A stretch of 32,000 nucleotides of DNA, taken from assembly GCF_003231495.1 (NCBI RefSeq), contig NZ_PQWO01000001.1, positions 210,001 through 242,000 of the forward strand, written 5' to 3'. Positions 1,888 to 28,065 of this stretch are shown piece after piece. This DNA is from Acaryochloris thomasi RCC1774. GTDB taxonomy: Bacteria > Cyanobacteriota > Cyanobacteriia > Thermosynechococcales > Thermosynechococcaceae. The notes under the pieces were generated by a model, which worked only from the letters and a program-made list of their open reading frames with translations, did no database searches and was not told the DNA's origin. Each line of letters starts with the position of its first letter. Within the stretch, counting starts at the first letter, position 1. The position numbers and the translations under genes are program-made.

Positions 1888-1909
1888 AAGACTCCTAGAG
1901 TAAAAATTG

Positions 1910-4213
1910 TCAATAAGAGTGACAGGGAACAGCAGCCTGAGCAAAGGCATTCGGCGTCACGTTCGGAGCCTGAGCTAGCAGCACAAGATTCCCTCTAGCA
2001 TCTCTTGCCCACCCCTGGGCCTCTTGTAAAGGACGAATGGGAGATGGCAATTTTCGCAGACCAGTGGTCGCTCCTCGCCACCGAGACGGAGCCTTTACGG
2101 CCCGCCTGATAGATGAAGGCCGGAGATCATCCCAGATGCTTTGGCTCCCGATCTCCTGTGGCTCTGAAGGTTTCCCCCCCCGTCGAGTGTGAATGAACTG
2201 GCTGCCCTGCTGCCCGGCTTGGCATCCCTGAGTTAGTACCGCAGTTCGGATCACTTCCGGCAGCGCCACCGTATCCTTACTCGGGTCAATCTCGGGCGTA
2301 TTCACCTGTACCACCCCATCAAGACCAAATCGAGAGTTGGCCGTGATATCGTTCGTCAATCCCGTATCTAAAGGCGGACGACTGAACCCGAGCAGCCCAT
2401 CAGTATTGATAGAGACAGCACCTCCATTTCCGAGAAATGCATCGGTACGAATATCACTGTTTTCACCAGGGACCGCGACCACCAGCGGAGCCGCAATCCG
2501 AATATTGCCTCCATCCCCTCCCGCGTTCCCAATGCCGCCAGAGGTTGAGATCATGCTCTCTTGACGTAGAAGAATATAGTCTGCGGCCCGCAGCACAATA
2601 TTGCCGCCACTGTCGGTTGCCGTCTCTGCATTGAGCAGCCCCCCCTCCAGGCGAATGGTATCAGCAAGAACGCTAATATTACCTGCTGAACCCTCCTCTA
2701 GGCTGCTGACCGTGACGAGTCCCTGATCTTGAACCAAAAGTTGCCCCGTTCTCAATACCAGGCTCCCGGCCATGCCCTCACCCTGAGCTTCTGCAATCAA
2801 GGCACTGGGTTGCAGATCGCCATTCTCATCAATTCCCACCCCCGTCACCAGAATGGAATCGGTGGCCATGATGCTTAAGCTACCTCCATCGCCATTGCTG
2901 ACACCTTGGCCAAAGCCATTTGGATCTGGATCTTCCACAGCCCCCACTGATACCTGGCCACCATTTTCAACCACCAGTCGTCGTGTGGTGATTTTCACCC
3001 GACCGGCATTCCCTGTCGCCCCCGCCACACTCTGGGAAAAGATCGCACTTTGCCCGCGTCGGCTCGGGTTGCGACCACTTACCCGAATCAGATCGGTGGC
3101 ATTAATCACAACCCGACCCGCATCTCCAGAATTATTCTCCCCAACGGTTGAAGAGGTTACTGTGCCACCATCTCTCAAAATAAGCTGACCCGTCTCGATC
3201 AACACCGTTCCTCCACTGACCGGCGCTCGAGTACGTGTTGCCACTTCGCTGTCACCGCTAAGCACAATTCGACCTGGCACCCGAAGGCTAATCGTACCGC
3301 CCTGAAAAGTCATATCCACAGGGTTAGTACTAAGCGTCGCATTGATTTTGGCGTTCAAAAGCGTTAGCTTCTGCCCCTGAACCTGCACCGAACCCGTACC
3401 TCGCCCCCCAGCCGTCACTAATGACCCTTGCGACAAGCGAATATTGCCTAGAGTCGCTCCCTCTGGCACGTCTAATATCCAGTTTTGCCCGACGGCACTG
3501 AGATCTACGCGGCTACCGGGGCCAACGCTCGCTAACTCAACGCGCCCCCGTGCGGCGGTAAGGTTCCCCCCGAGGAGATCTATATCACCGCCCACCAGAG
3601 CCAAGGTTCTGCCTGCATTAACCTGCAGCCCCACTGTTCTATCGCCCAATCGTCTTCGGGAAGAACCTAACCTCCCCGTGGTGCGCGACTGGTTTTGAAT
3701 GGGGGCAGCTGTGGGACCAAATCCAAGACCGATAGGCGTGCGAACAGTCAACAAAGAGGTGGGCTGAGTGGCGCTAAAGCGATCGCCTCCTGCAAACAAG
3801 ATTTGGCTAGCGGTGCTCGCTAAGAAGGAACCGTCCAGACTCAGACGAGCATTGGGACCAAAAAAGATACCGTTGGGATTAATGAAGAAAAGGTTGGCAT
3901 CACTATTTGGGACCCGAATTAATCCGTCAATATTGGAGGCTGCGGAACCTGTTACCCGGCTAATGATGTTAGTGACAGTAGGTCCACTGTTGAAGTCAGC
4001 AGACCCATTTATGGGGACTGAGAAAGTTCTGAAGCTCTGAAATAGATTACCGCCAACTTGCCGACCGCCATCAATATCAAAATTGAGTTGATCCGACGAT
4101 GTAACCTGAGTTCCGACCGTTGCATCGCCTTGAACCTGAGCCTGACCGTCACCAGCCGCCATCCCAAGCACACAAAGGCTAAAGGTTGATAAAAACAGAC
4201 AATTTTTAACCAT
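1910..4213 (-). CDS. Filamentous-haemagglutinin N-terminal (TPS) domain exoprotein, beta-helix repeat protein
   Basis: 767-aa ORF with signal peptide MVKNCLFLSTFSLCVLGMAAG. The TPS secretion domain is recognisable: NFDIDGGRQVGGNLFQSFRTFSV...NIISRVTGSAASNIDGLIRV...ANLFFINPNGIFFGPNARL. A long run of G/N/S/T-rich beta-helix-type repeats follows (GGNIVLRA, GGDGGNIRIAAP). The C-terminus EAQGWARDARGNLVLLA resembles the tail of cyanobacterial FHA-like proteins. Confidence 0.9.
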   Translation of the reverse strand: MVKNCLFLSTFSLCVLGMAAGDGQAQVQGDATVGTQVTSSDQLNFDIDGGRQVGGNLFQSFRTFSVPINGSADFNSGPTVTNIISRVTGSAASNIDGLIRVPNSDANLFFINPNGIFFGPNARLSLDGSFLASTASQILFAGGDRFSATQPTSLLTVRTPIGLGFGPTAAPIQNQSRTTGRLGSSRRRLGDRTVGLQVNAGRTLALVGGDIDLLGGNLTAARGRVELASVGPGSRVDLSAVGQNWILDVPEGATLGNIRLSQGSLVTAGGRGTGSVQVQGQKLTLLNAKINATLSTNPVDMTFQGGTISLRVPGRIVLSGDSEVATRTRAPVSGGTVLIETGQLILRDGGTVTSSTVGENNSGDAGRVVINATDLIRVSGRNPSRRGQSAIFSQSVAGATGNAGRVKITTRRLVVENGGQVSVGAVEDPDPNGFGQGVSNGDGGSLSIMATDSILVTGVGIDENGDLQPSALIAEAQGEGMAGSLVLRTGQLLVQDQGLVTVSSLEEGSAGNISVLADTIRLEGGLLNAETATDSGGNIVLRAADYILLRQESMISTSGGIGNAGGDGGNIRIAAPLVVAVPGENSDIRTDAFLGNGGAVSINTDGLLGFSRPPLDTGLTNDITANSRFGLDGVVQVNTPEIDPSKDTVALPEVIRTAVLTQGCQAGQQGSQFIHTRRGGKPSEPQEIGSQSIWDDLRPSSIRRAVKAPSRWRGATTGLRKLPSPIRPLQEAQGWARDARGNLVLLAQAPNVTPNAFAQAAVPCHSY

Positions 4214-5088
4214 TTAGGAGTGAGAACTGACAGCGTAGTTTGGCCAAGTCATAAACAGATATCGAGCGTGGGATATACCGCTCTTATGACTAAGAGCGCG
4301 AAGAATTTTAATCTGTTATCTATTTCTAACTATGCAGTTAATCACAGTCTGTGCCCATGTTTATGAGGTCTCTCTAATTTTTCAGGGCTTCTTGCCTCTT
4401 GCCCTGACTCAGTTCAAAGGGAAAGAGATGCCCTCGCATCTGTCCTCAAAGCTATTGCTTCCGGAAACGCGACTCGCTCTTCAATCACAAGACAAAGACG
4501 CAAGTCCAAGCAAATTGTCGGTCAACGATTGATGACTTTAGCCCCGAATCTATTGCTTGAAGACAGCTGGGAATACAGATGCCTGCTGTTTCGTAGGAAG
4601 TCTCAAGAAATAATGCAAAGCATACGCATAAAAAATAACTATGGTCCTAGATAGAAATAATAGATAGCCAAAAGGCAGTCATGTCTAAATTCCTTTAGAG
4701 GCTTCTAGAAGCTCTGAATATATTAGAATATAGCTTCTTTTTCTCTGAGATATTCTCCGTTTTGCAGTTATCAAAATTTCTTTAACCTATTCTTTTCTCA
4801 GGCGACTCTCTTTTGATAATCCTCAGAACATAGACAGACTAAGTTTGATGAGGAACTTGGTTTCGAAAAATAGGCATATTTCACTTGTTCAAACAACTGG
4901 TGGCCAATTTGAGCCTGTACAGTTTGCCTTTGGAACCCAAGCAATCAACGTGCTAATTCTTCTGGAGCAGATGAACTTTTTATCGCGTTCGATGTATGCT
5001 TCTACCGTTCGCAGCTTGAGTTTACAGTTCATCCAAAGGCTTCTTCGACGAACTCAGCCTAGAATATGGCTAGCACTGCCTAACCGCA

Positions 5089-7575
5089 ATGGTTGATTCA
5101 GCTCCACCTATTCCACCTGCACCAACGCTGCCTGACTGGACACGGCTGCAGCGATCGCTCGCTGTCGAAGCCGAGCGCGGCTTTAGCGATCTCGAAGGCA
5201 AGGAATTTCGGTTTAGCCAATTCCTCAAGCAAAGCTTAGAAACCTCCGCCGTTCCCTTTTTGAAGCCTGATGAGCAGGAACGCTGGCAGCAAACCGCCGC
5301 CCGCTTTGAAAAATACTCTGAGCTGCCCCTCAACAAACGTCAGCATCTTGTCGCAGAAACTCGCCGTCTGCTCTACCACGCTCAGCAGGATTACCGTCGC
5401 GTCATAGAGCCAGAATCTGCCCCTAAACCCAAGCAACCTAAAACGACATCGCTAGAAACGAAGAATCGAGAGATTACGCTTGATCAAGAACTTACCTACC
5501 TTCCGGGTGTTGGCCCTAAAAGTGCTGATAAACTTGCCAAGCTGGGTCTGTATAGCGTTCGAGATATTCTGTTCTACTATCCACGCGATCACATCGACTA
5601 TGCTCGTCAGGTCAAAATCGCAGACCTCGAGGTAGGGGAAACGGTGACGCTGGTGGCAACGGTGCGTCGCTGCAACTGCTTCAGCAGTCCTAAAAACTCG
5701 AAGCTGACAATTTTTGACCTGACGATTCGAGATGCTACGGGGCAAATTAAACTGAATCGGTTCTTCGCCGGGAATCGGTTTCGCAGTCGCGGTTGGCAAG
5801 AGGGACAAAAGCGGCTCTATCCTCCGGGGGCGATTGTTGCGGCGTCCGGGCTGGTGAAAAGCAGCAAGTATGGCATTACCCTCGATAATCCTGATATCGA
5901 AGTGCTCGATCATTCTGGTGGTGAGATTGACTCGCTCACGGTGGGGCGGGTGGTGCCCATTTATCCTTTAACGGAAGGAGTGCAGCCTGCCTTAGTGCGG
6001 CGAGCGGTGATTGCGGCTCTGCCTGCAGCGAAGAAACTCAAAGAGCCACTGCCGGAAGCTTTGCTCAACAGCCATAATTTAGTAGGTATTGGAGATGCGA
6101 TCGCAAATATCCATTTCCCCGAAAACAGCACGGCCTTAGACCGCGCCCGCCGCCGCCTGATCTTCGACGAGTTCTTCTACCTGCAGCTTGGTCTGCTGCT
6201 GCGGCGTCAACAACAGCGTCAGACTCAACAGAGCAATCCCCTCAGCGCTCGAGGCGAACTCGTGGAGCGATTCTATGATGTCCTGCCCTTTCAGTTCACA
6301 GATGCCCAACAGCGCGTCGTCAAAGAGATACTGACCGATATTGAATCTCCTGAACCCATGAATCGTCTTGTACAGGGAGATGTTGGGGCCGGTAAAACGG
6401 TTGTAGCCGTGGTGGCATTACTGGCTGCGATACAATCTGGCTACCAAACCGCACTCATGGCTCCAACAGAAGTCTTGGCCGAACAGCATTACCGCAAACT
6501 CGTGGAATGGTTTAATCAGCTTCATTTACCGGTGGAGTTACTGACCGGCTCCACCAAAGCCGCCAAGCGCAGAGAAATTGCCAGCCAACTAGAAACGGGA
6601 GAACTACCGCTTCTAGTTGGCACCCATGCTCTGATTGAAGATAAAGTACAGTTTCAGAGCCTAGGCTTAGTCGTCATTGACGAACAACATCGCTTTGGCG
6701 TTCAGCAGCGAGCCAGACTACAGCAAAAGGGTCAACATCCCCACGTGCTGACGATGACGGCAACCCCCATTCCTCGAACTCTGGCGCTGACACTCCACGG
6801 AGATTTAGATGTCAGTCAGATTGATGAGCTGCCTCCAGGACGGCAGGCAATTCAGACCACGATGCTGACGCCCAAAGATCGCACCCATGCCTATGACTTG
6901 ATTCGGCGCGAAGTGGCAATGGGCCGTCAGGTTTATGTCGTTCTACCGCTAGTGGAAGAATCAGAAAAGTTAGATCTTAAATCTGCAATTTCTGAACATG
7001 AACGACTGCAAAATACCGTCTTCCCCAACTTTAAGGTGGGATTGCTCCACGGTCGCATGAAGTCCGCCGAGAAAGACGCTGAAATTAGCCGGTTCCGAGA
7101 TGGCGAGATGCAGGTGATTGTTTCTACCACCGTTATTGAGGTTGGAGTCGATATCCCCAACGCAACAGTGATGCTAATTGAGCATGCTGAACGATTTGGT
7201 CTCTCACAGCTTCACCAGCTTCGGGGCCGCGTCGGTCGGGGTGCTCACCAGTCCTTCTGTCTATTGATGAATAGCTCGAAGAATGAAACCGCTAAGCAGC
7301 GCTTGAAAGTGATGGAGCAGTCCCAGGACGGGTTTTGGATTTCTGAGATGGATATGCGCTTTCGAGGTCCGGGCGAAGTGATGGGGACGCGCCAATCGGG
7401 GCTACCAGATCTGGCTTTGGCAAGCTTAGTGGACGATCAGGAAGCGCTGGAGCTAGCGAGAGATGCGGCGGAGAAGGCGATCGCACAGGACCCAACCCTT
7501 GAACGCTGGCCTCTCATGCGAACAGAGCTGGAACAGCGCTATCAGCGCTTAATGGGTGGCGCTATTTTTACTTAA
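5089..7575 (+). CDS. recG: ATP-dependent DNA helicase RecG
   Basis: 828-aa ORF. It has a wedge/OB region, Walker A GDVGAGKTVVA, the DEQHRFG box, ATPIPRTL, helicase C motifs (VEESEKL, HGRMK, TTVIEVGVDIPNA, QLHQLRGRVGRG) and the RecG TRG-like tail RGPGEVMGTRQSG. Confidence 0.95.
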   Translation: MVDSAPPIPPAPTLPDWTRLQRSLAVEAERGFSDLEGKEFRFSQFLKQSLETSAVPFLKPDEQERWQQTAARFEKYSELPLNKRQHLVAETRRLLYHAQQDYRRVIEPESAPKPKQPKTTSLETKNREITLDQELTYLPGVGPKSADKLAKLGLYSVRDILFYYPRDHIDYARQVKIADLEVGETVTLVATVRRCNCFSSPKNSKLTIFDLTIRDATGQIKLNRFFAGNRFRSRGWQEGQKRLYPPGAIVAASGLVKSSKYGITLDNPDIEVLDHSGGEIDSLTVGRVVPIYPLTEGVQPALVRRAVIAALPAAKKLKEPLPEALLNSHNLVGIGDAIANIHFPENSTALDRARRRLIFDEFFYLQLGLLLRRQQQRQTQQSNPLSARGELVERFYDVLPFQFTDAQQRVVKEILTDIESPEPMNRLVQGDVGAGKTVVAVVALLAAIQSGYQTALMAPTEVLAEQHYRKLVEWFNQLHLPVELLTGSTKAAKRREIASQLETGELPLLVGTHALIEDKVQFQSLGLVVIDEQHRFGVQQRARLQQKGQHPHVLTMTATPIPRTLALTLHGDLDVSQIDELPPGRQAIQTTMLTPKDRTHAYDLIRREVAMGRQVYVVLPLVEESEKLDLKSAISEHERLQNTVFPNFKVGLLHGRMKSAEKDAEISRFRDGEMQVIVSTTVIEVGVDIPNATVMLIEHAERFGLSQLHQLRGRVGRGAHQSFCLLMNSSKNETAKQRLKVMEQSQDGFWISEMDMRFRGPGEVMGTRQSGLPDLALASLVDDQEALELARDAAEKAIAQDPTLERWPLMRTELEQRYQRLMGGAIFT

Positions 7576-18673: not shown

Positions 18674-19282
18674 CTACTGAAAGTAAAAGGCCAGGAAGAT
18701 ATGAAACGCCAGCATCACCATAAAGAGACTGACAAAAATGATGTGACTCGATAGCCAAATCAGCCGCAGCCCGCGAATCAGTGGCCCCTTTGTAGTGGTG
18801 GGGAACACTTTCGCAACGGCACCTAGCTGCAGCGGTACCAAGCCAAAATATTTACGAGGCGATTCTAAAACACCCGTTTCAGCCACAACACCCATCAGTG
18901 CGGAGAGAGAGGTGCCCCAGAAAATCCAGAGGAAGATCATGTTGAAGTTGTCCCCCACCTGGCCGCCGGTATGAACCAAAATCATCGCGATCAGACCCAC
19001 GCCCAGGAAAATATGCAGGCTCCGCCACAGCACCATCGATCCTGGGATGCTGATTTTCCAGCGACGGCCTCGCTTTCGCACCGTCAACAGCATCTCCAAA
19101 ATCACAAAGGCCAGGGCGGTAAACCCTGTAATCATTTTATACAAGTCACCCTGCAAGGCCTCTAAGAGGTCAAAGGAATGCTCGCGCATTAACGGAATAT
19201 AGAGGGGACTAAACGCGAACGGCAGTAAAACGGCTGCCGTAATCAGCAGCAGAACAATGAGGGTTGAGAACTTGGGTTTCAT
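18674..19282 (-). CDS. Integral membrane protein with two H-X13-H pairs, candidate di-heme cytochrome b
   Basis: The ORF is open from GTG 19327, but ATG at 19282 (MKPKFSTLIVLLL) is the more plausible start. About 5 TM segments are present. Two of them carry histidine pairs 14 positions apart: SLHIFLGVGLIAMILVHTG and SSHIIFVSLFMVMLAFHIF. This is the bis-His ligation spacing seen in bc1 cytochrome b and ferric-reductase-type domains. It is the last gene of the heme operon. Confidence 0.55.
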   Translation of the reverse strand: MKPKFSTLIVLLLITAAVLLPFAFSPLYIPLMREHSFDLLEALQGDLYKMITGFTALAFVILEMLLTVRKRGRRWKISIPGSMVLWRSLHIFLGVGLIAMILVHTGGQVGDNFNMIFLWIFWGTSLSALMGVVAETGVLESPRKYFGLVPLQLGAVAKVFPTTTKGPLIRGLRLIWLSSHIIFVSLFMVMLAFHIFLAFYFQ

Positions 19283-19370: not shown

Positions 19371-20021
19371 CTAGGCACCTTCCAGCGGAATGTTGATCAT
19401 GATGCCGCCCATGACATCGTCGAGCTTGAAGACCTTGTCGGGGTAACGCTCTTTGTGAATCGGGTGGGTGTTGTGGCAGGTGACGCAGGCCTCTGCCACA
19501 GCCTTATCAGGATAGAGAGCCGAGAAATACTTCTGGCCGCCGACCTCCTGATATTCCTTGTAGGGTTCTCCTGTTTCGTTCACTTGCTCAATGGCCGTTT
19601 GCTCAAAGTCACTCTTTGGCCCCTGATTGTCATTGATGTACCAGGAAGAGATTAGGTTATAGGTAAAGGTGCCATCTTCTGAGGCTATCTCAGACCCCAG
19701 CCGAAACATTTGGGCCGGTAGCGGAATCCCGTTGGTCTGCTCCCACCCTTCGGTGGCTTCAATCTCAAGGACACCATCGTCTTTGGGCTTGCCTTCTAGT
19801 TTCTTGGCCCGATTAACGACGTGCTTCGTGTAGGCTGTGCGGTCTGAAGCCAGTGCGGTATGAATATAATCAGCTACTAACTCGGGCTGAACGCCCCCGG
19901 CCTGTGTCTGGGCACCGCCACCGCTACAGGCTACGGCGGTGAAGCAAATAACAATCGCCAGGGCAAATAAACCTAGGGTTCGTTGACGAAATCGTCGGAT
20001 TTGTCTGTTCGCAGAAATCAT
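19371..20021 (-). CDS. DUF3365 / Tll0287-like monoheme c-type protein (possible lipoprotein)
   Basis: 216-aa ORF. The signal peptide ends AVACSGGG. DUF3365-like blocks are IPLPAQMFR and LISSWYINDNQGPKSDFEQTAIEQV, with a single CVTCH heme site and the C-terminal FKLDDVMGGIMINIPL. Confidence 0.8.
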   Translation of the reverse strand: MISANRQIRRFRQRTLGLFALAIVICFTAVACSGGGAQTQAGGVQPELVADYIHTALASDRTAYTKHVVNRAKKLEGKPKDDGVLEIEATEGWEQTNGIPLPAQMFRLGSEIASEDGTFTYNLISSWYINDNQGPKSDFEQTAIEQVNETGEPYKEYQEVGGQKYFSALYPDKAVAEACVTCHNTHPIHKERYPDKVFKLDDVMGGIMINIPLEGA

Positions 20022-20093: not shown

Positions 20094-20891
20094 CTAATTG
20101 CCCGACCGCTGTTTTTCTAGGGCGCGGACCATCTCTAGGGTTTGCAGGGATTCAGTGGGCGGTCGGGCAAAGTTGGAGGCCACTAGGTCATCATCGAAAA
20201 TGCTTTTGTAGGCGTATTCCATACCGTGACAGTTCATACAGACTTCTTTGACCATGCGATCGCGAGGCAACAGTGTATACGTGTTGTTGTGATTGACTTG
20301 AGTCGGCTTTCCACTGCCTGCGTCATGGCGCGGGAGATGGCAGGCCGCACAGGTTGTGGACTGTGCAGAGGGGCGAGGCAGCGTTCCTTCCTGCTGCCAG
20401 AGCTGGGCGTGTTTTGAGTTTTTGTAGTTGCGAGAATGATCGTCGTTGTGACAGCTTAGGCAGCTATCGACTGCTGCTGTTTGGGTCTTAACCGTGTGGA
20501 CATCGTGACAGGTGTTGCAGTTCATGACCTGGTTTTGGGCCTCAACTTTCATGGGCAAGTGGGCCATGGCAGGCGTCAGCGGCGACTCCCCCTCCAGCAG
20601 ACGAATGCCGTGCTTACCGAGCAAGAACGTATCCACCGCCTGTTCGTGGCAGGAGCGACAGCTCTCGTGGTCTGGCTGAGCAATAAACTGCTTGCTCTTT
20701 GAATCTTGATGGCAGCTAGAGCAGTTCACTTCGGCAAGGGCATGGGCACTTCCCTGCCAGCGTTCGGTGATCTCCTGAAGTTCAGCTTCTGTAGATGCTA
20801 TTGCATCTACAGAAGAGCCAAAAAACGGCTCTAGGAAAACGCCCCCCATAAGGCAGTACAGAGAAATGAGCAAGACACTCAGCACCTTCAT
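20094..20891 (-). CDS. Hexaheme c-type cytochrome (periplasmic/lumenal)
   Basis: 265-aa ORF with a signal peptide. Six CXXCH motifs are present: CSSCH, CRSCH, CNTCH, CLSCH, CAACH and CMNCH. Its start overlaps the upstream gene stop by 4 nt (ATGA). Confidence 0.9.
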   Translation of the reverse strand: MKVLSVLLISLYCLMGGVFLEPFFGSSVDAIASTEAELQEITERWQGSAHALAEVNCSSCHQDSKSKQFIAQPDHESCRSCHEQAVDTFLLGKHGIRLLEGESPLTPAMAHLPMKVEAQNQVMNCNTCHDVHTVKTQTAAVDSCLSCHNDDHSRNYKNSKHAQLWQQEGTLPRPSAQSTTCAACHLPRHDAGSGKPTQVNHNNTYTLLPRDRMVKEVCMNCHGMEYAYKSIFDDDLVASNFARPPTESLQTLEMVRALEKQRSGN

Positions 20892-21535
20892 GAGCGCCCC
20901 CCTTTGAACTCTTGCGATAAATCAGGTTTCGGGGCTGTTTGAACTTTCGTTGTCACCGTTCGCACGGGCAAAGCAGGCTGGGGCATAAAGTCAGGCTGAT
21001 CAAGGTTCTGGCGCAGAAATCCTGTGGAAATAGTGCGATGGTCATGGTAGTTGTGGCATCCGGCCGTCCAGCAGCCATCAGCGGTGAACCCATCGTGGCT
21101 TTTCAGATCACCCTCAATGATGCCCTGATGGCAAGCCATACAGAGATCGGGCTTTAGATTGACGCCCCGGCCAAACATATGGACGTGCTCGTTATGGCAG
21201 GTGGTACAGGTCAACGCAGCTATTTTTTCTAAGTCACCTGCCCATCGAGGATCACGGAACTTCTTCGCACCGTGGGCATCCGTCGCCATCTCGGCTTCGT
21301 GACAGCGCAGGCAGGTTTCATTGCTGACAGGTTTAAATCCTTCATGACAAGAGGCGCAAGAGGCTTCGAATAAAACGTGGCCATCCGAGGTTGTGCCCGG
21401 GAGAAACACCGTCTTGTGATCGGTGGCAAAGGCAGCCCCGAGCCAACAGGTCAACAGCAAGCAGAGCGTCACCACAGCCGTTTTGACACTCAACAAATTC
21501 CCGATGCGGAAACGTCTGCGGGTGTTGGCAGTCAC
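20888..21535 (-). CDS. Cytochrome c3-like pentaheme protein (4 x CXXCH plus 1 x CX4CH), N-terminally anchored or secreted
   Basis: 215-aa ORF. The GTG start is preceded by GGAGG 7 nt upstream. Heme motifs are CASCH, CLRCH, CTTCH, CMACH and CWTAGCH (21053-21073). The last resembles the CGTAGCH site of Desulfovibrio tetraheme cytochrome c3. Confidence 0.9.
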   Translation of the reverse strand: MTANTRRRFRIGNLLSVKTAVVTLCLLLTCWLGAAFATDHKTVFLPGTTSDGHVLFEASCASCHEGFKPVSNETCLRCHEAEMATDAHGAKKFRDPRWAGDLEKIAALTCTTCHNEHVHMFGRGVNLKPDLCMACHQGIIEGDLKSHDGFTADGCWTAGCHNYHDHRTISTGFLRQNLDQPDFMPQPALPVRTVTTKVQTAPKPDLSQEFKGGRS

Positions 21536-21549
21536 ACCGAGCCTCCGGT

Positions 21550-22620
21550 CTATACCAGCAGGGCGATCACGATCACGGCAATCACCCCCCCGGCAATGAG
21601 GGCGAGCAGACCTTTTTCACTACCCTCCTCTAAGTTCTCCGCAACGCTGGCCTTTGGCTCGCCTTCAGCATTCGCCATTGTGACCGGCTCTGCATGTGTA
21701 GGCGACTCAACTGCAGGCGGAGACGTTTCTAGCTGCACCTGCTGCTGGGTATAGTCTGCACCATCCAACATGATCTCAGTAATGGTGCCGTAGGCATCGA
21801 CCCAGGCCTCTTTGACCTCCGGTCTCCAGTCTTGACCGAGATACTGCTCAAAGGTCTTCAGCAAAGAGTTACCCACCAGCGGATAATGCTCTGGCAGTGC
21901 CCCATACTTTACATGGCGCGCCCCCAGCCCTCTCAAGCTTTTGCTCAGAACCTCAGGGTTACGCAAGTTCTCAATCACAAGCACCAAAGACTGCAGTAGC
22001 TTCTGCTCCTGCTCCTTCATATGGGTGTTCTCAAACAGCGGCTTCGCGGCTGGATAGTCGGTGAACAGATTTGTATAAAAACTACCGACAAACGCACTTG
22101 CCTCAGGCGTAATCTGGGCAAAACTCTTCTCCAGTAACTGCACCTGATGCTCGGCGGCATCCGGCTCAGCGACGCTAGGTGCACTCGCGCCTTCCAGCTC
22201 TAGATCCGCTGCGTTATAGTCTGCACCTGCGAGCATCGTTTCACTGATGGCTCCGTAGGCATCAACCCAGGCCTGCTTCACTTCTGGGGTCCAGTCCTTG
22301 CCGAGGTACTGCTCAAAGGTCTTCAGCAAAGAGTTACCCACCAGCGGATAATGCTGCGGCAGGGCACCATACTTCACATGGCGCGCGCCTAAGCCTTCCA
22401 GGGCGTCACCAAGAATCTCAGGGTTACGCAGATTTTGAATCACAAGCACGAGAGATTTAAGCAGCTTTGGCTTTTGCTCCTCCATTGCGGTGCCTGCAAA
22501 CAGCGGTTCAGCCGCAGGATAATCTGTGAATAAGTTGTCGTAGAAGCTAGTGACAAAATCATCAGCCATCGGCTTAATTTGGTCAAAACTACGCTCTAAT
22601 GTTTCTACTTGTAAAGACAT
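21550..22620 (-). CDS. Tandem (two-domain) Vitreoscilla-Hb/flavohemoglobin-type 3-on-3 globin with a C-terminal TM anchor
   Basis: 356-aa ORF with two copies of a globin fold (aa 3-135 and 158-290). Each aligns by eye to VHb: FY(D/T)NLFTDYPAA.PLF (B10 Tyr), EEQKPK/KEQEQK (E7 Gln), LGARHVKYG (F8 His) and HYPLVGNSLL...AWVDAYG. The C-terminal LLALIAGGVIAVIVIALLV is a TM tail. There is no N-terminal signal peptide. Confidence 0.85.
   Translation of the reverse strand: MSLQVETLERSFDQIKPMADDFVTSFYDNLFTDYPAAEPLFAGTAMEEQKPKLLKSLVLVIQNLRNPEILGDALEGLGARHVKYGALPQHYPLVGNSLLKTFEQYLGKDWTPEVKQAWVDAYGAISETMLAGADYNAADLELEGASAPSVAEPDAAEHQVQLLEKSFAQITPEASAFVGSFYTNLFTDYPAAKPLFENTHMKEQEQKLLQSLVLVIENLRNPEVLSKSLRGLGARHVKYGALPEHYPLVGNSLLKTFEQYLGQDWRPEVKEAWVDAYGTITEIMLDGADYTQQQVQLETSPPAVESPTHAEPVTMANAEGEPKASVAENLEEGSEKGLLALIAGGVIAVIVIALLV
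21751..22614 (-). repeat. Internal tandem duplication of the globin domain (period 465 nt)
   Basis: A 49-nt identical block tactgctcaaaggtcttcagcaaagagttacccaccagcggataatgct occurs at 21842-21890 and at 22307-22355. The flanking sequence is similar across roughly 400 nt per unit. Confidence 0.85.
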
Positions 22621-22900: not shown

Positions 22901-22942
22901 AAGTTAAAGAAGGTTCCGGATCACATTCGTAGCTCTTGCTAC
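22901..22942 (-). promoter_or_regulatory. NtcA-type class II promoter architecture (GTA-N8-TAC, N22, TAN3T) oriented toward the globin operon
   Basis: Minus-strand read: GTAGCAAGAGCTAC (22942-22929), then 22 nt (gaatgtgatccggaaccttctt), then TAACTT (22906-22901). It lies about 280 nt upstream of the globin start at 22620. Confidence 0.35.
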
Positions 22943-23276: not shown

Positions 23277-24197
23277 TTAAAGGTTTAAAGCCCGTCCACG
23301 TATCAGCGTTTGATGCTGCTGTTCAGAGAGTCCTTTCGCATTGGTAAAGACAGCGCCAGCAACCACACAGTCAGAAAAATCAACGTTTGTTAGAGTCGTA
23401 CTTTCCAAATTGGCATCTCGAAAATCTGCGCCGGTCACAGTTGCGTCTGAGAGGTCAGCTCCCTCCAAATTAGCGCTGTAGAAGGATGCTTCTGTCAGAT
23501 TGGCTCCCACAAGCTGAGTCTGCAGCAGCTCTGCATGGTCGAGGCTGGCTTGCTGGAGCTGAGTTGCCTGCAGAATTGCGCCCCGCAGCTTGGCGGCAAT
23601 GAGGTCAGCGTTAGTTAGATCCGCTCCCCGCAAATCTGCTTGCTGCAGAAGACAACGTTCTAGAGCCGCTCCCATCAGTTGAGCGTTGGGCAGTTGCGTC
23701 CCCTTGAGAACGGCATCATTTAGTTTTGCGCCGCGCAGATCGGCCTGCGGAAACTGTGCTGCTGTTAAATTAGCCTTCATTAAAATGGCGTCTCGGAAAC
23801 AGACGGTCTCTCCCTGGGCTTCTGTAAAATCAGCATGTTCCAAGATGGCTCTAGAGAAATCAGCCCGATCTAAGGTAGCTTTAGGAAGCTTGATGCCTGA
23901 AGCATTCACGGCCTGTAGCTGCGTTCCCTCTAGGTGAGCGGCGTTCAATAGCGCCTGTGAGAGGGTCGCCTGCTGAAAGTTCGCCCCTGAGAGCTTCGCT
24001 AACATCAAGGTCGCGGCGGTGAAGTTCGCGTGGCTGCATGAGGCTCCGGTCAGGTTTGCCAACCGAAGATAAGCTTGCTCAAACTGTCCCTGATCGAGCT
24101 GGGCGTTCTGCAAGTCAATATTGCTCAGTTCAGCGCCCTGGAGCGATTGCCCCTGCTGAACCTGGCTCTGGACTTCTGCCGCCGTCATGGTTGTCAT
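23277..24197 (-). CDS. Pentapeptide-repeat protein
   Basis: 306-aa ORF made almost entirely of A(D/N)LxG-type pentapeptides (ANLTGASCSHANFTAATLMLAKLSGANFQQATLSQALL...). No signal peptide is present. Its ATG at 24197 (or 24188) overlaps the 3' end of ccsA. Confidence 0.9.
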   Translation of the reverse strand: MTTMTAAEVQSQVQQGQSLQGAELSNIDLQNAQLDQGQFEQAYLRLANLTGASCSHANFTAATLMLAKLSGANFQQATLSQALLNAAHLEGTQLQAVNASGIKLPKATLDRADFSRAILEHADFTEAQGETVCFRDAILMKANLTAAQFPQADLRGAKLNDAVLKGTQLPNAQLMGAALERCLLQQADLRGADLTNADLIAAKLRGAILQATQLQQASLDHAELLQTQLVGANLTEASFYSANLEGADLSDATVTGADFRDANLESTTLTNVDFSDCVVAGAVFTNAKGLSEQQHQTLIRGRALNL

Positions 24198-25863
24198 AAT
24201 TTTGCACCGCTGCTGTAAACCTCAAGCCGCCTTGATGACGGACGATTGCACTCAACACAAAGAGCAGATCTAGCCCGACGAAACCCGCCACAATCAAGGC
24301 GGAGCCACCGGTACTAAAGCCATAGCTGTGCAGTCCAGTCCCCAAAACAAAGTTGACGCCGTACCAAGCCATTAGCACGGCGTTGAAGGAAACGACGCTG
24401 GCAATGGTGAGACCAAAGGCACCGATCCAGCCCACTAAGCGACCGTGAAGTGGAGCCAAGTAGCACAGCAGCGCAATCAGCGCCCAGGTCTCTTTTGGAT
24501 CCCAGCCCCAAAACCGTCCCCAGGAGAAGTGCGCCCAGATGCCGCCCAAAATGATGCCTGCCGTTAACAGTAGGATGCCGACTTGCAGAACCTGATAGTT
24601 CCAGCGGGACAGCTTCTGAATCTGTTGGGATTGAGGCAAGAACAGATAGTAGCCCAGGGTCACGTGGCCTAGCCCCATCGCTAGGGCGAAGCTAGCGTAG
24701 CCGAGGGTAATCGTAGGGACATGGATGCTGAGCCAAAAATTATCCCGTAGAACTGGCACCAGGGGGCTGATGCTGGGGTCGAGAACAGCGGGAAGGCTGT
24801 CGGCTAACACCAAACACAGAACCGATAGAGGGGCTGCTGCCAATAGGTAGTAGTGGGCTTTGGATCGCCACTCGAAGAGCAGGGCCAGCGCTGCAATGCC
24901 AAATCCGACCCAGATCACGGATTCGTACATATTAGTGACGGGGGGACGATCTGCAATCTGTACCCGCAGGAGAAAACCATAGCACTGGGTCAATAATCCG
25001 GCACTGAAAACGCCCATTGCGCTCCAGTACAGATTCCATTGGGGAAAGTTGAGCGCCATCAGCATCAAAATAAATGCGATCGCATATAGCCACCAAGCTT
25101 TGGCAAAGGGATGGAAGTGATTGAAGAACACCTCTCGCTGGAGGATGCGATCGCTTGGATAGATCTGCGGGCTCAAGTCCACAAGCTGCTGACGCAAAGT
25201 CTCTGCCTGCTGCCCCACCGCCGCTAGGTTCTGCGGATCTTGCAAATAGGTCTGCTGGAGCTGCTCAAACTGAGCGATCAGGCGACTGGAGTTAGGGTAG
25301 TAAGCCTCGCTGTCGGTTAGCCCGAGCCATTTGCCCTTTAGATCGCTGGGATGGGGAACCAGCGGTAGAGATTGAGACCCGACGGTCTGCATCATCAGAT
25401 CAATGCGATCGTAGAGGTTGAGGGCTTCTCGTTCATCTCGCGTCAGGGTTTGATCTTGGCTTTGCTTCTGTTCTGCTGTTTGCAGAAGGTTGCCTAAGTC
25501 AGACTGCGCTAATGCCGCAAAGGAAAAGTGTTTTTGGTCGGGATTAAGACCTAGTTTTTCTTTGAGCGGACGATAGCTCAATAGAATGAACGGCTCCTGA
25601 TTCCAGTTGCGATCGTTCCACCACAGGGAGAGGTAGGTTTGCTGGCTGTTTAGGCGCTGCCCTGTCTCAGTGCGGTAGCTCGGAGAACCGTGAATCTGGG
25701 CTACGGTCTCGCGGGCCACGGTATCTAGGGGCTTTTTACGGCCTTCAAGCTGAACGGCAAAGGTGGACAGCGAGTCTAAGGGGTGGTCTTGAGATTGGCT
25801 GAGGGGCGCTAGGAGAATGAGTAAGCCCAGACAAAGACTCAGGAGAAATTTAGGAGTTTTCAT
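24130..25863 (-). CDS. ccsA: Cytochrome c biogenesis protein CcsA/ResC-type (System II heme-handling WWD protein) with a long N-terminal extracytoplasmic extension
   Basis: The ORF is open from 25977, but that extension is translated repeat sequence. ATG at 25863 gives MKTPKFLLSLCLGLLILLAPLSQS. After a soluble region of about 250 aa come about 8 TM segments and the W-rich motif WGRFWGWDPKETWALIALL, with conserved His residues in the flanking loops. Confidence 0.87.
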   Translation of the reverse strand: MKTPKFLLSLCLGLLILLAPLSQSQDHPLDSLSTFAVQLEGRKKPLDTVARETVAQIHGSPSYRTETGQRLNSQQTYLSLWWNDRNWNQEPFILLSYRPLKEKLGLNPDQKHFSFAALAQSDLGNLLQTAEQKQSQDQTLTRDEREALNLYDRIDLMMQTVGSQSLPLVPHPSDLKGKWLGLTDSEAYYPNSSRLIAQFEQLQQTYLQDPQNLAAVGQQAETLRQQLVDLSPQIYPSDRILQREVFFNHFHPFAKAWWLYAIAFILMLMALNFPQWNLYWSAMGVFSAGLLTQCYGFLLRVQIADRPPVTNMYESVIWVGFGIAALALLFEWRSKAHYYLLAAAPLSVLCLVLADSLPAVLDPSISPLVPVLRDNFWLSIHVPTITLGYASFALAMGLGHVTLGYYLFLPQSQQIQKLSRWNYQVLQVGILLLTAGIILGGIWAHFSWGRFWGWDPKETWALIALLCYLAPLHGRLVGWIGAFGLTIASVVSFNAVLMAWYGVNFVLGTGLHSYGFSTGGSALIVAGFVGLDLLFVLSAIVRHQGGLRFTAAVQNYDNHDGGRSPEPGSAGAIAPGR

Positions 25864-25921
25864 GTTCGCGGGTGGTGACTGGGCGATTGAGAATGGGAGA
25901 GGTTCCAGATTGATTTGCACT

Positions 25922-25953
25922 GCCCCCCCGGCCCCCCAATTCTGGGGGGAGAG
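25922..25953 (-). repeat. G/C-rich palindromic dispersed repeat, copy B (inverted relative to copy C)
   Basis: The reverse complement reads ctct-cccccc-agaatt-gggggg-cc-ggggggg-c. It has 1 mismatch to copy C over 32 nt. Confidence 0.85.
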
Positions 25954-26151
25954 AGGCCGAGGTTCTGCATTTCCCAATAGATATCGCTACGGGAGCATTG
26001 TCTGTTGATAAAAATGGCGTAAGCAGACGCTTGGGAAGATCGTGGAGTACCTGTATTCGTCCCCAATATTCGCTGACACTGCGGGACTTCAAGTACTCAA
26101 TGATTTTTATCAAACTCGAAAGCTGTTGCGAACTTGAGAGGATGCTGTCGA

Positions 26152-26226: not shown

Positions 26227-28065
26227 TCACGTCTCTACCTGGACTGTGCTGTTTGCGAGGGGCTCTGACCGACCTGCCCCTAAAGGAGAAGCTTTGCTAA
26301 CGGCCATCGCATCTTCCTCCACAAACCTCTCTGTAGGTCCTGAGGTCATCGTTCGCCAATATTTGCCGAGATGTTTGCCATAGAACATCGTGCTAATGCC
26401 GCTCACCACGAGCAGCGCCCCACTCCAGGTCAAAGCCGTTACCCACAGCGGTTCTCGCTTGACCTGCAGCGTAGACTGATTCAAATCACCTGGATTCCAG
26501 GAGGCTTGGGCAATCTTCCAGCCCTGATACCAAGTGGGGTGATTCATCCAGACATCTCGATGCTCAACGCTGCCCGTGTGGGGATCCTGCAGCTTGACTT
26601 TGCTGGTCCACATGGCGACGGACTCATCCCCTTCATTGCGCTCGACAATGAAGTCTTCAAGGCCCAGGTCAAAGGGGAGCGCCAGCGATCGAGGACTGAA
26701 AAAGGCAAATATGGCCCCCGCTGCATCGTTCAGTTCCGATGGTTCGCCCCAAGGTAGCCACTGTTCAGCGCCGGTTGGGGTCGTCACGAGCAAACCAGGG
26801 GAGCCTTCTTGATCAGATGGCACCACCTGACGCTGCACCTGCGCCTGGGTCAGCTCATTCACTAAGGTGATCTGAAAATCTGCCCAGCCCGTCTGAACAG
26901 GCTGTCCCGGCACCAACGGTTCTGAGGTAAACTCTTGAGCAGAGCGGAGGCCATAGAAAATCTGCCCCTGAGAATCGGCAACGACGCGGAAGAGACGGTC
27001 CGCAACGAGCGGGGCTGTCTGATAGGTAATTTCTAGATTTTGGGCGTTAATGTTGGGGCTGAGTTCAGTTCCTGACAGGACGGTCCGCACGGGGTCAAAC
27101 CCTTCCTGAGCAAAGACATACCAGCGCTCAACGCCAGTTGAATGCTGGACCTCAAGGCCCAAAACGGGGTTCCGTAGCTCTTGGGAAATCGTGATCGGCT
27201 GTGATTGATTATTAAGGCGAAAGTCAGGCCAAACATGGCTCACGGTTACCTGCAGATCGCGATCCAGCTTAAGGGGGTGATCGAGGGCCTGCTCGACATC
27301 TAAGGTCTGCTTTTTACCTCTTGTCTCAATCTGCATCTGCCCCCATCGGCCAAGGACTGAGTTCTGAGATTCAGATAAAAGCTGCTGTAGCTGTTGGTCG
27401 TCTTCAGCCTGCACTAGCTCTAGCTGGGCAGGGCCAAGCGTTGTCTGGCGATACGCACGCGGAAAGTCAGCTAGCCAAACCTGCGTCGATTGGCCCATAC
27501 GATCGCTGTTGAGCTGTAGCTGCACCGCTCGATTGGGAACCGCGCCCCCTTCGGCAAACTGAATGGTTTCAACGACGTGATCGCGATATCCCAGCAGGGA
27601 CAGACCATTAAACTGAGCAGGTGACACGGACTGATCTGGATTCACTCGCAGCAGAGTTTGCTGCGGCTCTTGCCCCCATTGGGCCACCTCCAGCATGTCT
27701 CCTTCCGTACTTAGTTGATGCTGAGGGGGGCCGTCTGTGCGCAGCACGAGCATCCCTTCAGCACCCAGATGGATCACGGCAGCGGAGCCAGCAATCAAGA
27801 CAATCAGGCCCAGATGCGCTAGCGCGAAGCCGATCTTCCGCGCTCCTTTCCAGGGATAGCGAGATAGGGCAGAAACACCAAGATTGACGGCGAGCATCAA
27901 CATCAAGGCCCCAAACCAGGGGCTCTTATAGATCAGCTGCTGGACTGCTGCGGAACCCACCTGAGTTTCGTAAAACGTTGCGCCGATCAGGATAGTTGCG
28001 ATCGCACTGAGCAGCGGCACCGCCAGCTTGATGGACCCTAAAAATGGATAAACTTTGGCGAACAT
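26227..28065 (-). CDS. ccsB: Cytochrome c biogenesis protein ResB/CcsB(Ccs1)-type (System II)
   Basis: 612-aa ORF. The ResB-like N-terminus is FLGSIKLAVPLLSAIATILIGATFYE...SPWFGALMLMLAVNLGVSALSRYPW...FALAHLGLIVLIAGSA. A large extracytoplasmic domain follows, then the C-terminal WMNHPTWYQGWKIAQASW and a final TM segment. Confidence 0.85.
   Translation of the reverse strand: MFAKVYPFLGSIKLAVPLLSAIATILIGATFYETQVGSAAVQQLIYKSPWFGALMLMLAVNLGVSALSRYPWKGARKIGFALAHLGLIVLIAGSAAVIHLGAEGMLVLRTDGPPQHQLSTEGDMLEVAQWGQEPQQTLLRVNPDQSVSPAQFNGLSLLGYRDHVVETIQFAEGGAVPNRAVQLQLNSDRMGQSTQVWLADFPRAYRQTTLGPAQLELVQAEDDQQLQQLLSESQNSVLGRWGQMQIETRGKKQTLDVEQALDHPLKLDRDLQVTVSHVWPDFRLNNQSQPITISQELRNPVLGLEVQHSTGVERWYVFAQEGFDPVRTVLSGTELSPNINAQNLEITYQTAPLVADRLFRVVADSQGQIFYGLRSAQEFTSEPLVPGQPVQTGWADFQITLVNELTQAQVQRQVVPSDQEGSPGLLVTTPTGAEQWLPWGEPSELNDAAGAIFAFFSPRSLALPFDLGLEDFIVERNEGDESVAMWTSKVKLQDPHTGSVEHRDVWMNHPTWYQGWKIAQASWNPGDLNQSTLQVKREPLWVTALTWSGALLVVSGISTMFYGKHLGKYWRTMTSGPTERFVEEDAMAVSKASPLGAGRSEPLANSTVQVET

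Follow-up and report, generated by a model that had tools for sequence, protein, structure and literature searches.

The 32,000-nucleotide stretch of Acaryochloris thomasi RCC1774 analyzed here (contig NZ_PQWO01000001.1, positions 210,001 to 242,000, hereafter the window) contains a gene, P0001, for a di-globin of 356 amino acids (aa) in which two tandem globin domains are followed by an acidic tether and a predicted transmembrane (TM) tail anchor. The gene stands at the head of an operon encoding multihaem cytochromes c. Globins, tandem globins and membrane-associated globins are each already known. What appears to be new is the combination, not reported in the searchable literature, of a unit resembling Hell's Gate globin I (HGbI) that is amplified from two to at least four times, a transmembrane tail anchor and an invariable place as the first gene of a multihaem operon. 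We consider it about an even chance that the globin acts as the cytoplasmic end of a transmembrane haem relay that would handle nitric oxide (NO) or O2 and be re-reduced through the membrane. The gene is divided as follows, in coordinates of the window.

21550–22620, minus strand: predicted tail-anchored di-globin gene P0001, 356 aa, from the list of open reading frames (ORFs) and its translation.
22201–22620, minus strand: globin domain 1, residues 1–140, from the hidden Markov model (HMM) envelope, the invariant alignment columns and AlphaFold2 predicted local distance difference test scores (pLDDT) mostly >90; Tyr27 (B10), Phe41 (CD1), Gln49 (E7), Leu53 (E11), His81 (F8), Tyr91 (G5).
22156–22200, minus strand: short acidic inter-domain linker, residues 141–155, with pLDDT <50 at 145–152.
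21736–22155, minus strand: globin domain 2, residues 156–295, from the HMM envelope, HGbI alignment, invariant columns, AlphaFold2 and Foldseek; Tyr182 (B10), Phe196 (CD1), Gln204 (E7), His236 (F8), Tyr246 (G5).
21613–21735, minus strand: disordered acidic tether rich in Pro/Ala/Ser/Thr, residues 296–336 (41 aa), with pLDDT 40–51.
21553–21612, minus strand: predicted TM tail anchor GLLALIAGGVIAVIVIALLV, residues 337–356, from hydropathy and an AlphaFold2 helix at 344–355.

The di-globin gives two Pfam Globin (PF00042) matches (E 2.6e-37, 128 bits against a cut-off of 22), and its two halves share 70% amino acid identity over 154 residues in a BLASTP alignment (E 2e-80). Positions B10, E7 and F8 of both domains were placed by alignment to O2-bound HGbI. 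An alignment of 58 homologues shows the same six residues in both domains without exception, namely Tyr B10, Phe CD1, Gln E7, Leu E11, His F8 and Tyr G5. This agrees with the B10 Tyr, E7 Gln and F8 His residues read in an initial annotation of this DNA. The AlphaFold2 model, built on the same 58-homologue alignment, has a mean pLDDT of 83.9 and contains two confident globin folds in blocks mostly above 90. It places globin helix A at residues 5–33, disorder at residues 145–152 and 305–344, and a terminal helix at residues 344–355. Both modelled domains have the 3-on-3 fold with helices A–H, and both carry the distal and proximal signature residues of the F/M family. Based on sequence and model, the di-globin is a flavohaemoglobin-lineage (F/M family) 3-on-3 globin of the single-domain type, and both of its domains would be expected to bind haem b.

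No FAD/NAD domain of Pfam is found in the di-globin. The NCBIfam flavohaemoprotein model NF009805 scores 142 bits against a cut-off of 432, with only profile positions 12–136 of 399 matched. Because the reductase domain is absent and NF009805 is matched through its globin part only, the protein is not a flavohaemoglobin. It is not a globin-coupled sensor either, since the Pfam Protoglobin match stays below threshold (16.6 bits, cut-off 25) and only a linker and one TM helix follow the globins.

The best sequence match to the di-globin is HGbI of Methylacidiphilum infernorum (PDB codes 3s1i and 3ubc; E 6e-25). With Foldseek, 3s1i is the best single-domain match to domain 2, with a template modelling (TM) score of 0.88 and a root-mean-square deviation (rmsd) of 1.6 Å at 38% identity. 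The two proteins share the HYPLVG motif of the G helix in addition to Tyr B10, Gln E7 and His F8. The globin domain of HGbRL (PDB code 3wfw) is, together with HGbI, among the closest solved structures. HGbI is a single soluble domain of ~133 aa and, unlike the di-globin, has no tandem repeat, tether, anchor or multihaem operon; HGb-I has been found to interact with lipids (PMC11203436). Vitreoscilla haemoglobin (VHb; PDB code 1vhb) comes next after HGbI (E 3e-16, Foldseek TM score 0.74). The globin domains of VHb, Hmp (1gvh) and FHP (1cqx) belong to the same flavohaemoglobin-lineage 3-on-3 family and carry the same signature residues as the di-globin. The initial label of a VHb-type globin is thus right at the level of the F/M lineage, but the closest solved relative is HGbI, ahead of VHb. 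NO dioxygenase and O2 chemistry are established for VHb and the flavohaemoglobins (PMC3820574). Flavohaemoglobins, however, have the FAD/NAD(P)H reductase domain that the di-globin lacks, and the membrane association of VHb is peripheral only, whereas the di-globin encodes a predicted transmembrane tail.

The tether of the di-globin contains 9 D/E against 2 K/R. Across the family its length varies between 13 and 68 aa (median 25), with 48% P/A/S/T. The tail GLLALIAGGVIAVIVIALLV has a mean Kyte-Doolittle hydropathy of 3.17 over the final 19 of its 20 residues, and the stop codon at 21550–21552 follows it directly, leaving zero residues beyond the helix. Inspection of the N-terminus found no signal peptide and no twin-arginine motif; the absence of a signal peptide follows from the N-terminus being globin helix A. 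A single C-terminal helix behind an acidic linker and the lack of a signal peptide, both pointed out initially, are therefore upheld. A search of a 5.8-billion-protein collection returned 626 relatives of the di-globin, and tails and globin units were counted in the best 120 of them. A hydrophobic C-terminal tail is present in 116 of these 120, the four exceptions appearing truncated. The median apolar run of the tails is 22 aa, a GG motif occurs in 103 of the 116, and K/R is found just upstream in 72%. At the level of sequence, a terminal TM helix in the absence of an N-terminal signal is the pattern of a tail-anchored membrane protein, and the anchor would leave the globins on the cytoplasmic side.

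The tandem 3-on-3 globins were initially placed at an offset of 155 aa (465 nucleotides, nt), and comparison of the gene with itself gives the same value, a 300-nt direct repeat with a spacing of exactly 465 nt or 155 codons. Inside this repeat, a run of 49 nt that covers the codons for HYPLVGNSLLKTFEQY is identical in the two units.

22307–22355, minus strand: 49-nt identical run, domain 1 copy, equal to 21842–21890.
21842–21890, minus strand: 49-nt identical run, domain 2 copy, equal to 22307–22355.

When 145 codon columns were shuffled in 20,000 trials, the longest identical run had a mean of 16.8 nt and a maximum of 42 nt. Since no shuffle (0/20000) reached 49, the run, which had been noticed in the initial annotation, is a real and non-random local feature. 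The repeat units have ~70% nucleotide identity, with 55% at third codon positions, and use the same codon at 59 of the 102 residues conserved between them.

In the homologues, globin units within one protein have a median identity of 84% and a maximum of 99%, and orthologues across lineages are only about 60–70% identical. Intra-protein units are more alike than orthologous units in 92% of 4851 di-globin pairs. An ancient split between first and second domains was considered and rejected, given this intra-protein likeness and a domain tree that falls into 138 maximal position-pure clades. A residual positional signal is present, with orthologous identity exceeding cross identity in 46% of the pairs. 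Acaryochloris CCMEE 5410 has a tri-globin with second and third domains 95% identical and A. marina has a di-globin, so by their sequences units have been added recently in places, CCMEE 5410 being an example. The unit pair of the window, at 70%, is among the most diverged in the family, and the longest identical inter-unit runs in four other loci are 13–35 nt. The 49-nt tract looks like a small gene-conversion patch. The duplication itself is not young, because the units agree at 55% of third codon positions and 99 of the 120 best relatives have the di-globin form. Overall, these comparisons indicate an old duplication whose repeats evolve in concert. The initial suggestion of recent duplication or ongoing conversion is accordingly retained for conversion and given up for recent duplication. 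For prokaryotic globins, the family is a clean natural example of repeats that evolve in concert and change in copy number (from 1 to at least 4).

The genes that follow the globin encode exported cytochromes c, as initially stated, with the pentahaem and hexahaem genes directly downstream. The surroundings of the globin gene are listed below.

20888–21535, minus strand: pentahaem cytochrome c with an N-terminal anchor or signal sequence, from Pfam Cytochrom_c3_2 and the motif count.
20094–20891, minus strand: hexahaem cytochrome c with a signal peptide, from Pfam and the motif count; 4-nt overlap with the pentahaem gene.
19371–20021, minus strand: Tll0287-like (DUF3365, haem-c Cache) protein, Pfam PF11845, E 2.4e-20.
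18674–19282, minus strand: membrane protein of 202 aa with five helices and four invariant histidines (His4 membrane protein), from the alignment of homologues and AlphaFold2.
23277–24197, minus strand: pentapeptide-repeat protein, 306 aa, from Pfam, upstream of the globin.
24130–25977, minus strand: CcsA-type cytochrome c synthase subunit, second copy, cluster-associated, Pfam Cytochrom_C_asm.
26227–28065, minus strand: ResB/CcsB-like synthase partner, Pfam ResB.

The pentahaem gene starts 14 nt past the globin stop codon. Its product has four CxxCH sites and one non-canonical CX4CH site (CWTAGCH, residue 155), and the latter may be tied to the cluster's own CcsBA-type synthase. The Tll0287-like protein, a member of a family described in PMC12889525, has a lipobox-like N-terminus (AVAC) and one CVTCH motif. 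The gene order was compared in eight loci, namely the window, PCC 7376, three other species genomes, Acaryochloris CCMEE 5410, Hyella patelloides and the contig L037 of a metagenome-assembled genome (MAG). The order globin, pentahaem, hexahaem is kept in all eight, with the globin directly before the pentahaem gene. In six of them the genes for the Tll0287-like protein and then the membrane protein follow in addition. L037 is a partial contig that ends before the rest of the cluster; in the other remaining locus the order is kept and the globin is single-domain and untailed. L037 has two multi-globin genes (615 and 513 aa; 1579–6390) before its pentahaem gene, with the Tll0287-like gene between them. 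Six of the eight loci have a second ResB/CcsA pair close by. The CcsA-type gene adjoins the cluster in L001, L018, L019, L030, L036 and L038, and the ResB gene in five loci besides the window (L001, L018, L019, L030 and L036). We define a cyanobacterial tail-anchored multi-globin family by one or more HGbI-like units, an acidic tether and a terminal GG-containing TM helix, encoded by the first gene before those for the pentahaem, hexahaem, Tll0287-like and His4 proteins; all of them are present in the gene of the window.

The true start of the His4 membrane protein is Met16 of its ORF, which gives the length of 202 aa. It has 474 homologues, and all of the named ones are called hypothetical. 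In an alignment of 58 sequences His90, His104, His180 and His194 are invariant, forming an H-x13-H pattern twice, on two helices. Cytoplasmic loops are indicated by two basic segments, RKRGRRWK and KGPLIRGLR, which would put one histidine pair (His90 and His180) close to the inner face of the membrane and the other (His104 and His194) close to the outer face, a geometry suited to two stacked bis-His b-haems. The protein matched nothing in Pfam or NCBIfam. Its AlphaFold2 model has a pLDDT of 86.6 and a predicted template modelling score (pTM) of 0.76, and Foldseek returned no PDB structure for it at E <1. We regard this protein as a putative dihaem-b transmembrane cytochrome, and it may represent a new type of small cytochrome of this kind.

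The distribution of these genes was examined in 401 evenly sampled cyanobacterial species genomes. A globin of the di-globin clade, in any architecture, is present in 38 of the 401 genomes and in 24 of 156 genera. The His4 membrane protein occurs in only six of the genomes, each from a different family. Four of the six have intact clusters, all headed by the globin. In the other two (L034 in G074 and L035 in G334) the cluster is decayed, with a truncated His4 protein, a frameshifted ResB and pentapeptide fragments, and the globin and multihaem genes are both gone. Because intact clusters start with the globin and decayed ones lack both, the globin and cytochrome genes are inherited and lost together.

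The initial annotation had called the architecture unfamiliar. It is common in cyanobacteria (the 626 relatives), but no paper characterizing it was found. Our literature search, with most subscription journals outside its reach, returned no paper on a tandem tail-anchored globin. The relatives that bear names are nearly all cyanobacterial (Acaryochloris, [Leptolyngbya] PCC 7376, Leptolyngbya iicbica, Hyella, Moorena, Symploca, Pleurocapsa and Xenococcaceae) and carry no annotation beyond 'globin family protein', 'hemoglobin-like flavoprotein' or 'nitric oxide dioxygenase'. Two globin units are present in 99 of the best 120, three in 20 and at least four in one partial sequence.

A wider HMMER search of 1.84 billion cluster representatives gave 8009 matches at E up to 0.001. 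Many tandem globins are among the best 150 of these, and they include further tail-anchored cyanobacterial forms, cyanobacterial fusions of one or more globins to two TM helices and a pentapeptide domain, and di-globins with one or two C-terminal TM helices and a basic end of the GYFWGKR type, one of them from Haliangium (Myxococcota). A sea-urchin poly-globin (P0245) and a 14-unit metagenomic protein are also found there. The latter, P0241 from a JGI metagenome, has 2461 aa and 14 consecutive globin units with 37% identity to the family; its cluster mate P0403 has 3326 aa. The globin-pentapeptide fusions (L020–L023, L025–L027, L032 and L033) are cyanobacterial proteins of 468–672 aa in which one or two globins of the same clade precede a long linker, two TM helices that form a membrane hairpin, and a pentapeptide-repeat domain, with no cytochrome operon nearby. 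From their sequences, such a fusion is a second and independent way of tying a globin of this clade to the membrane. The Haliangium protein (MAG locus L039, 7992–9560, plus strand) is a 522-aa di-globin with two C-terminal TM helices, encoded between Ser/Thr kinase genes, and no recognizable multihaem cytochrome genes were seen among the ORFs of at least 120 aa at this locus. By sequence it represents a parallel origin of a tandem globin with a membrane anchor. Considering the varied architectures found in the wider search, tandem flavohaemoglobin-lineage globins and their membrane attachment have arisen more than once, with the linkage to a cytochrome operon, as far as these sequences indicate, a cyanobacterial specialty.

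Both the fusions and the Haliangium protein resemble the di-globin in placing tandem flavohaemoglobin-lineage globins at the membrane, but the anchor of the former is a hairpin with a pentapeptide domain, the latter has two TM helices and a GYFWGKR end, and neither has multihaem neighbors. Tandem globin units are also known from multidomain truncated haemoglobins (Hade et al. 2017, as cited in PMC7475203) and animal poly-globins such as P0245 of sea urchin. The former are 2-on-2 truncated actinobacterial proteins and the latter are eukaryotic and of respiratory type; neither is known to have a tail anchor or a cytochrome operon. Globin X and a crab gill globin are held at the membrane, with a proposed protective or redox role (PMC3820574, PMC7475203). 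These are eukaryotic single-domain proteins anchored by N-terminal acylation, in contrast to the transmembrane helix of the di-globin. Two-globin PDB chains found by Foldseek were engineered di-alpha haemoglobins only.

In the proposed relay, the double globin would hang at the cytoplasmic face of the membrane by the flexible acidic tether and the tail anchor. The tether would keep the globin haems beside the inner haem of the His4 membrane protein, so that electrons could pass between the exported multihaem chain and the globin. On the exported side there would be 11 c-haems on the two cytochromes and one haem-c Cache-like protein. The Tyr-B10/Gln-E7 globin could bind O2, dioxygenate NO to nitrate, or otherwise turn over O2 or nitrogen oxides, and the membrane relay would stand in for the FAD reductase domain of flavohaemoglobins. 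A related precedent is the Bjgb-Flp system of Bradyrhizobium (narK-bjgb-flp-nasC), in which a single-domain globin and a separately encoded reductase detoxify NO (PMC4724949). The logic of a globin co-encoded with a separate electron supplier is the same as proposed here, but the partner of Bjgb is a soluble flavoprotein in a nitrate-assimilation operon, whereas the candidate here is the His4 membrane protein with exported multihaem cytochromes. Gardner has remarked that membrane association may aid the reduction of globins by membrane reductases (PMC3820574). The relay fits with this remark, with the Bjgb-Flp precedent (PMC4724949) and with the lipid interaction of HGb-I (PMC11203436). The fuller idea of an undescribed haem wire, with 12 c-haems outside, two b-haems in the membrane, two to four globin haems inside and the globin as its cytoplasmic terminus, is put forward tentatively and we hold it to be somewhat doubtful.

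Several findings weigh against the relay. The di-globin model has a pTM of 0.51, and the mutual arrangement of its domains is not fixed by the model. The intact operon of G344 (L030) has a single-domain globin without a tail, from which it follows that anchor and duplication are usual but not obligatory. With a length of 13–68 aa, the tether would be as appropriate for a scavenger held loosely as for a redox partner that docks. The dihaem-b assignment of the His4 protein is drawn solely from the histidine pattern, as it has no relative in Pfam, NCBIfam or among PDB folds. The hexahaem cytochrome has weak PDB similarity, to the HAO-like 6h5l (E 4e-5) and faintly to NrfA-type nitrite reductases, and this similarity is a weak hint of nitrogen-oxide chemistry.

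The evidence may also be read in other ways. In the manner of Vitreoscilla haemoglobin, the tethered globins could concentrate or scavenge O2 (or NO) at the membrane and exchange no electrons with the operon cytochromes, thereby protecting or feeding the neighboring haem complex or respiratory oxidases. An O2 buffer or delivery role of this kind is unlikely in our view, though it deserves serious consideration, as the Tyr-B10/Gln-E7 pocket is typical of high-O2-affinity bacterial globins, one to four or more units on a flexible tether look more like a way of setting the number of binding sites than like a fixed contact for redox exchange, and VHb is listed among membrane-associated globins (PMC3820574). 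However, a ferrous globin needs a reductase to stay active, no other one is encoded in the cluster, and strict co-inheritance and co-loss with the His4 protein and the cytochromes exceed the needs of a generic buffer. It is improbable that the globin is a gas or redox sensor that detects cytoplasmic O2 or NO and gates or regulates the relay, possibly with the neighboring pentapeptide-repeat protein, instead of converting a substrate. The fusions of one or two related globins to a membrane hairpin and a pentapeptide domain, the positional conservation of the 306-aa pentapeptide protein in the cluster and the proposal of HGb-I as a lipid-dependent sensor (PMC11203436) would agree with sensing. 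Yet there is no transmitter domain, the Protoglobin match is sub-threshold, the pentapeptide protein of the cluster does not stand out as the nearest relative of the fused domain, and tandem amplification of a sensor domain would be unusual.

The variable number of haem domains would suit a capacity role, and the multi-globin might then store and hand over haem b beside the CcsBA-type synthase of the cluster, which must export and attach 12 haems per cytochrome set and whose second ResB/CcsA pair accompanies 6/8 loci. Such a reservoir appears quite improbable, because the invariant Tyr B10, Gln E7 and Leu E11 serve in handling ligands and have no use in mere storage, and globins bind haem very tightly. 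We know of no precedent for a globin as haem reservoir of a cytochrome synthase. That the C-terminus is instead a PEP-CTERM or GlyGly-CTERM sorting signal, with the globins outside together with the cytochromes c, is given very little credence. The conserved GG/GGG motif in 103/116 tails speaks for it; the di-globin contains no PEP motif and was matched by no NCBIfam CTERM model. Such a signal does not fit, since the N-terminus is globin helix A with neither a signal peptide nor a twin-arginine motif, no basic cluster is found past the helix and the CTERM models do not match. It should also be considered that the second globin unit could be a repeat expanded by the assembler, as the 49-nt identical run inside the repeat might suggest. 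The units are only about 70% identical in DNA, too different for assembler confusion, and most of the independently assembled genomes and metagenome contigs that were retrieved, complete genomes among them, contain the di-globin form. With this family conservation and 30% inter-unit DNA divergence, an assembler-made duplication is excluded for practical purposes, which largely removes a doubt raised with the initial annotation.

The relay of globin and membrane cytochrome, if true, would be a new kind of NO dioxygenase or oxidase with an extracytoplasmic multihaem chain as its 'reductase'. It would allow a phototroph to couple periplasmic or external electron donors to cytoplasmic O2 and NO chemistry, or the reverse. 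Single-domain bacterial globins raise the question of what re-reduces them, and the operon offers a fixed candidate in the His4 protein and the 11-haem exported chain. Were this wiring real, the di-globin would be the first example of a globin linked to a cytochrome relay across the membrane and the operon among the few known uses of multihaem cytochromes in cyanobacteria, with a bearing on how marine mat-forming and epiphytic cyanobacteria handle NO and O2 stress.

Full-length orthologues of the pentapeptide-repeat protein are encoded in L001, L018, L019 and L030, and remnants are left in the decayed clusters. A Rosetta-stone link between globin and pentapeptide protein by way of the fusions was tried and rejected, the best matches of the fused domain in the A. 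thomasi genome being other pentapeptide proteins and not that of the cluster. Because the fused domain is not closest to the cluster protein, the link of the pentapeptide gene to the cluster comes down to positional conservation.

A scan for sigma-70 promoters and terminators gave nothing above shuffle expectation. An NtcA-like GTAGCAAGAGCTAC is located at 22901–22942 on the minus strand, 322 nt upstream of the globin start. Of four orthologous loci, L001 and L030 lack the GTA-N8-TAC pattern within 700 nt upstream, and L018 and L019 have it at other distances.

The same genome encodes a second, single-domain globin (C7:214424–214840; L031 9820–10395, minus strand) that is 50% identical to the di-globin units and has a conserved C-terminal extension, ELTFY(D/E)W(V/L)DLYGE(G/S)SP...F(Q/K)YG. 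In G264 (L018, 5831–6361) and G298 (L019, 5660–6190) its orthologue forms a sixth gene of the operon, immediately following that for the His4 membrane protein.

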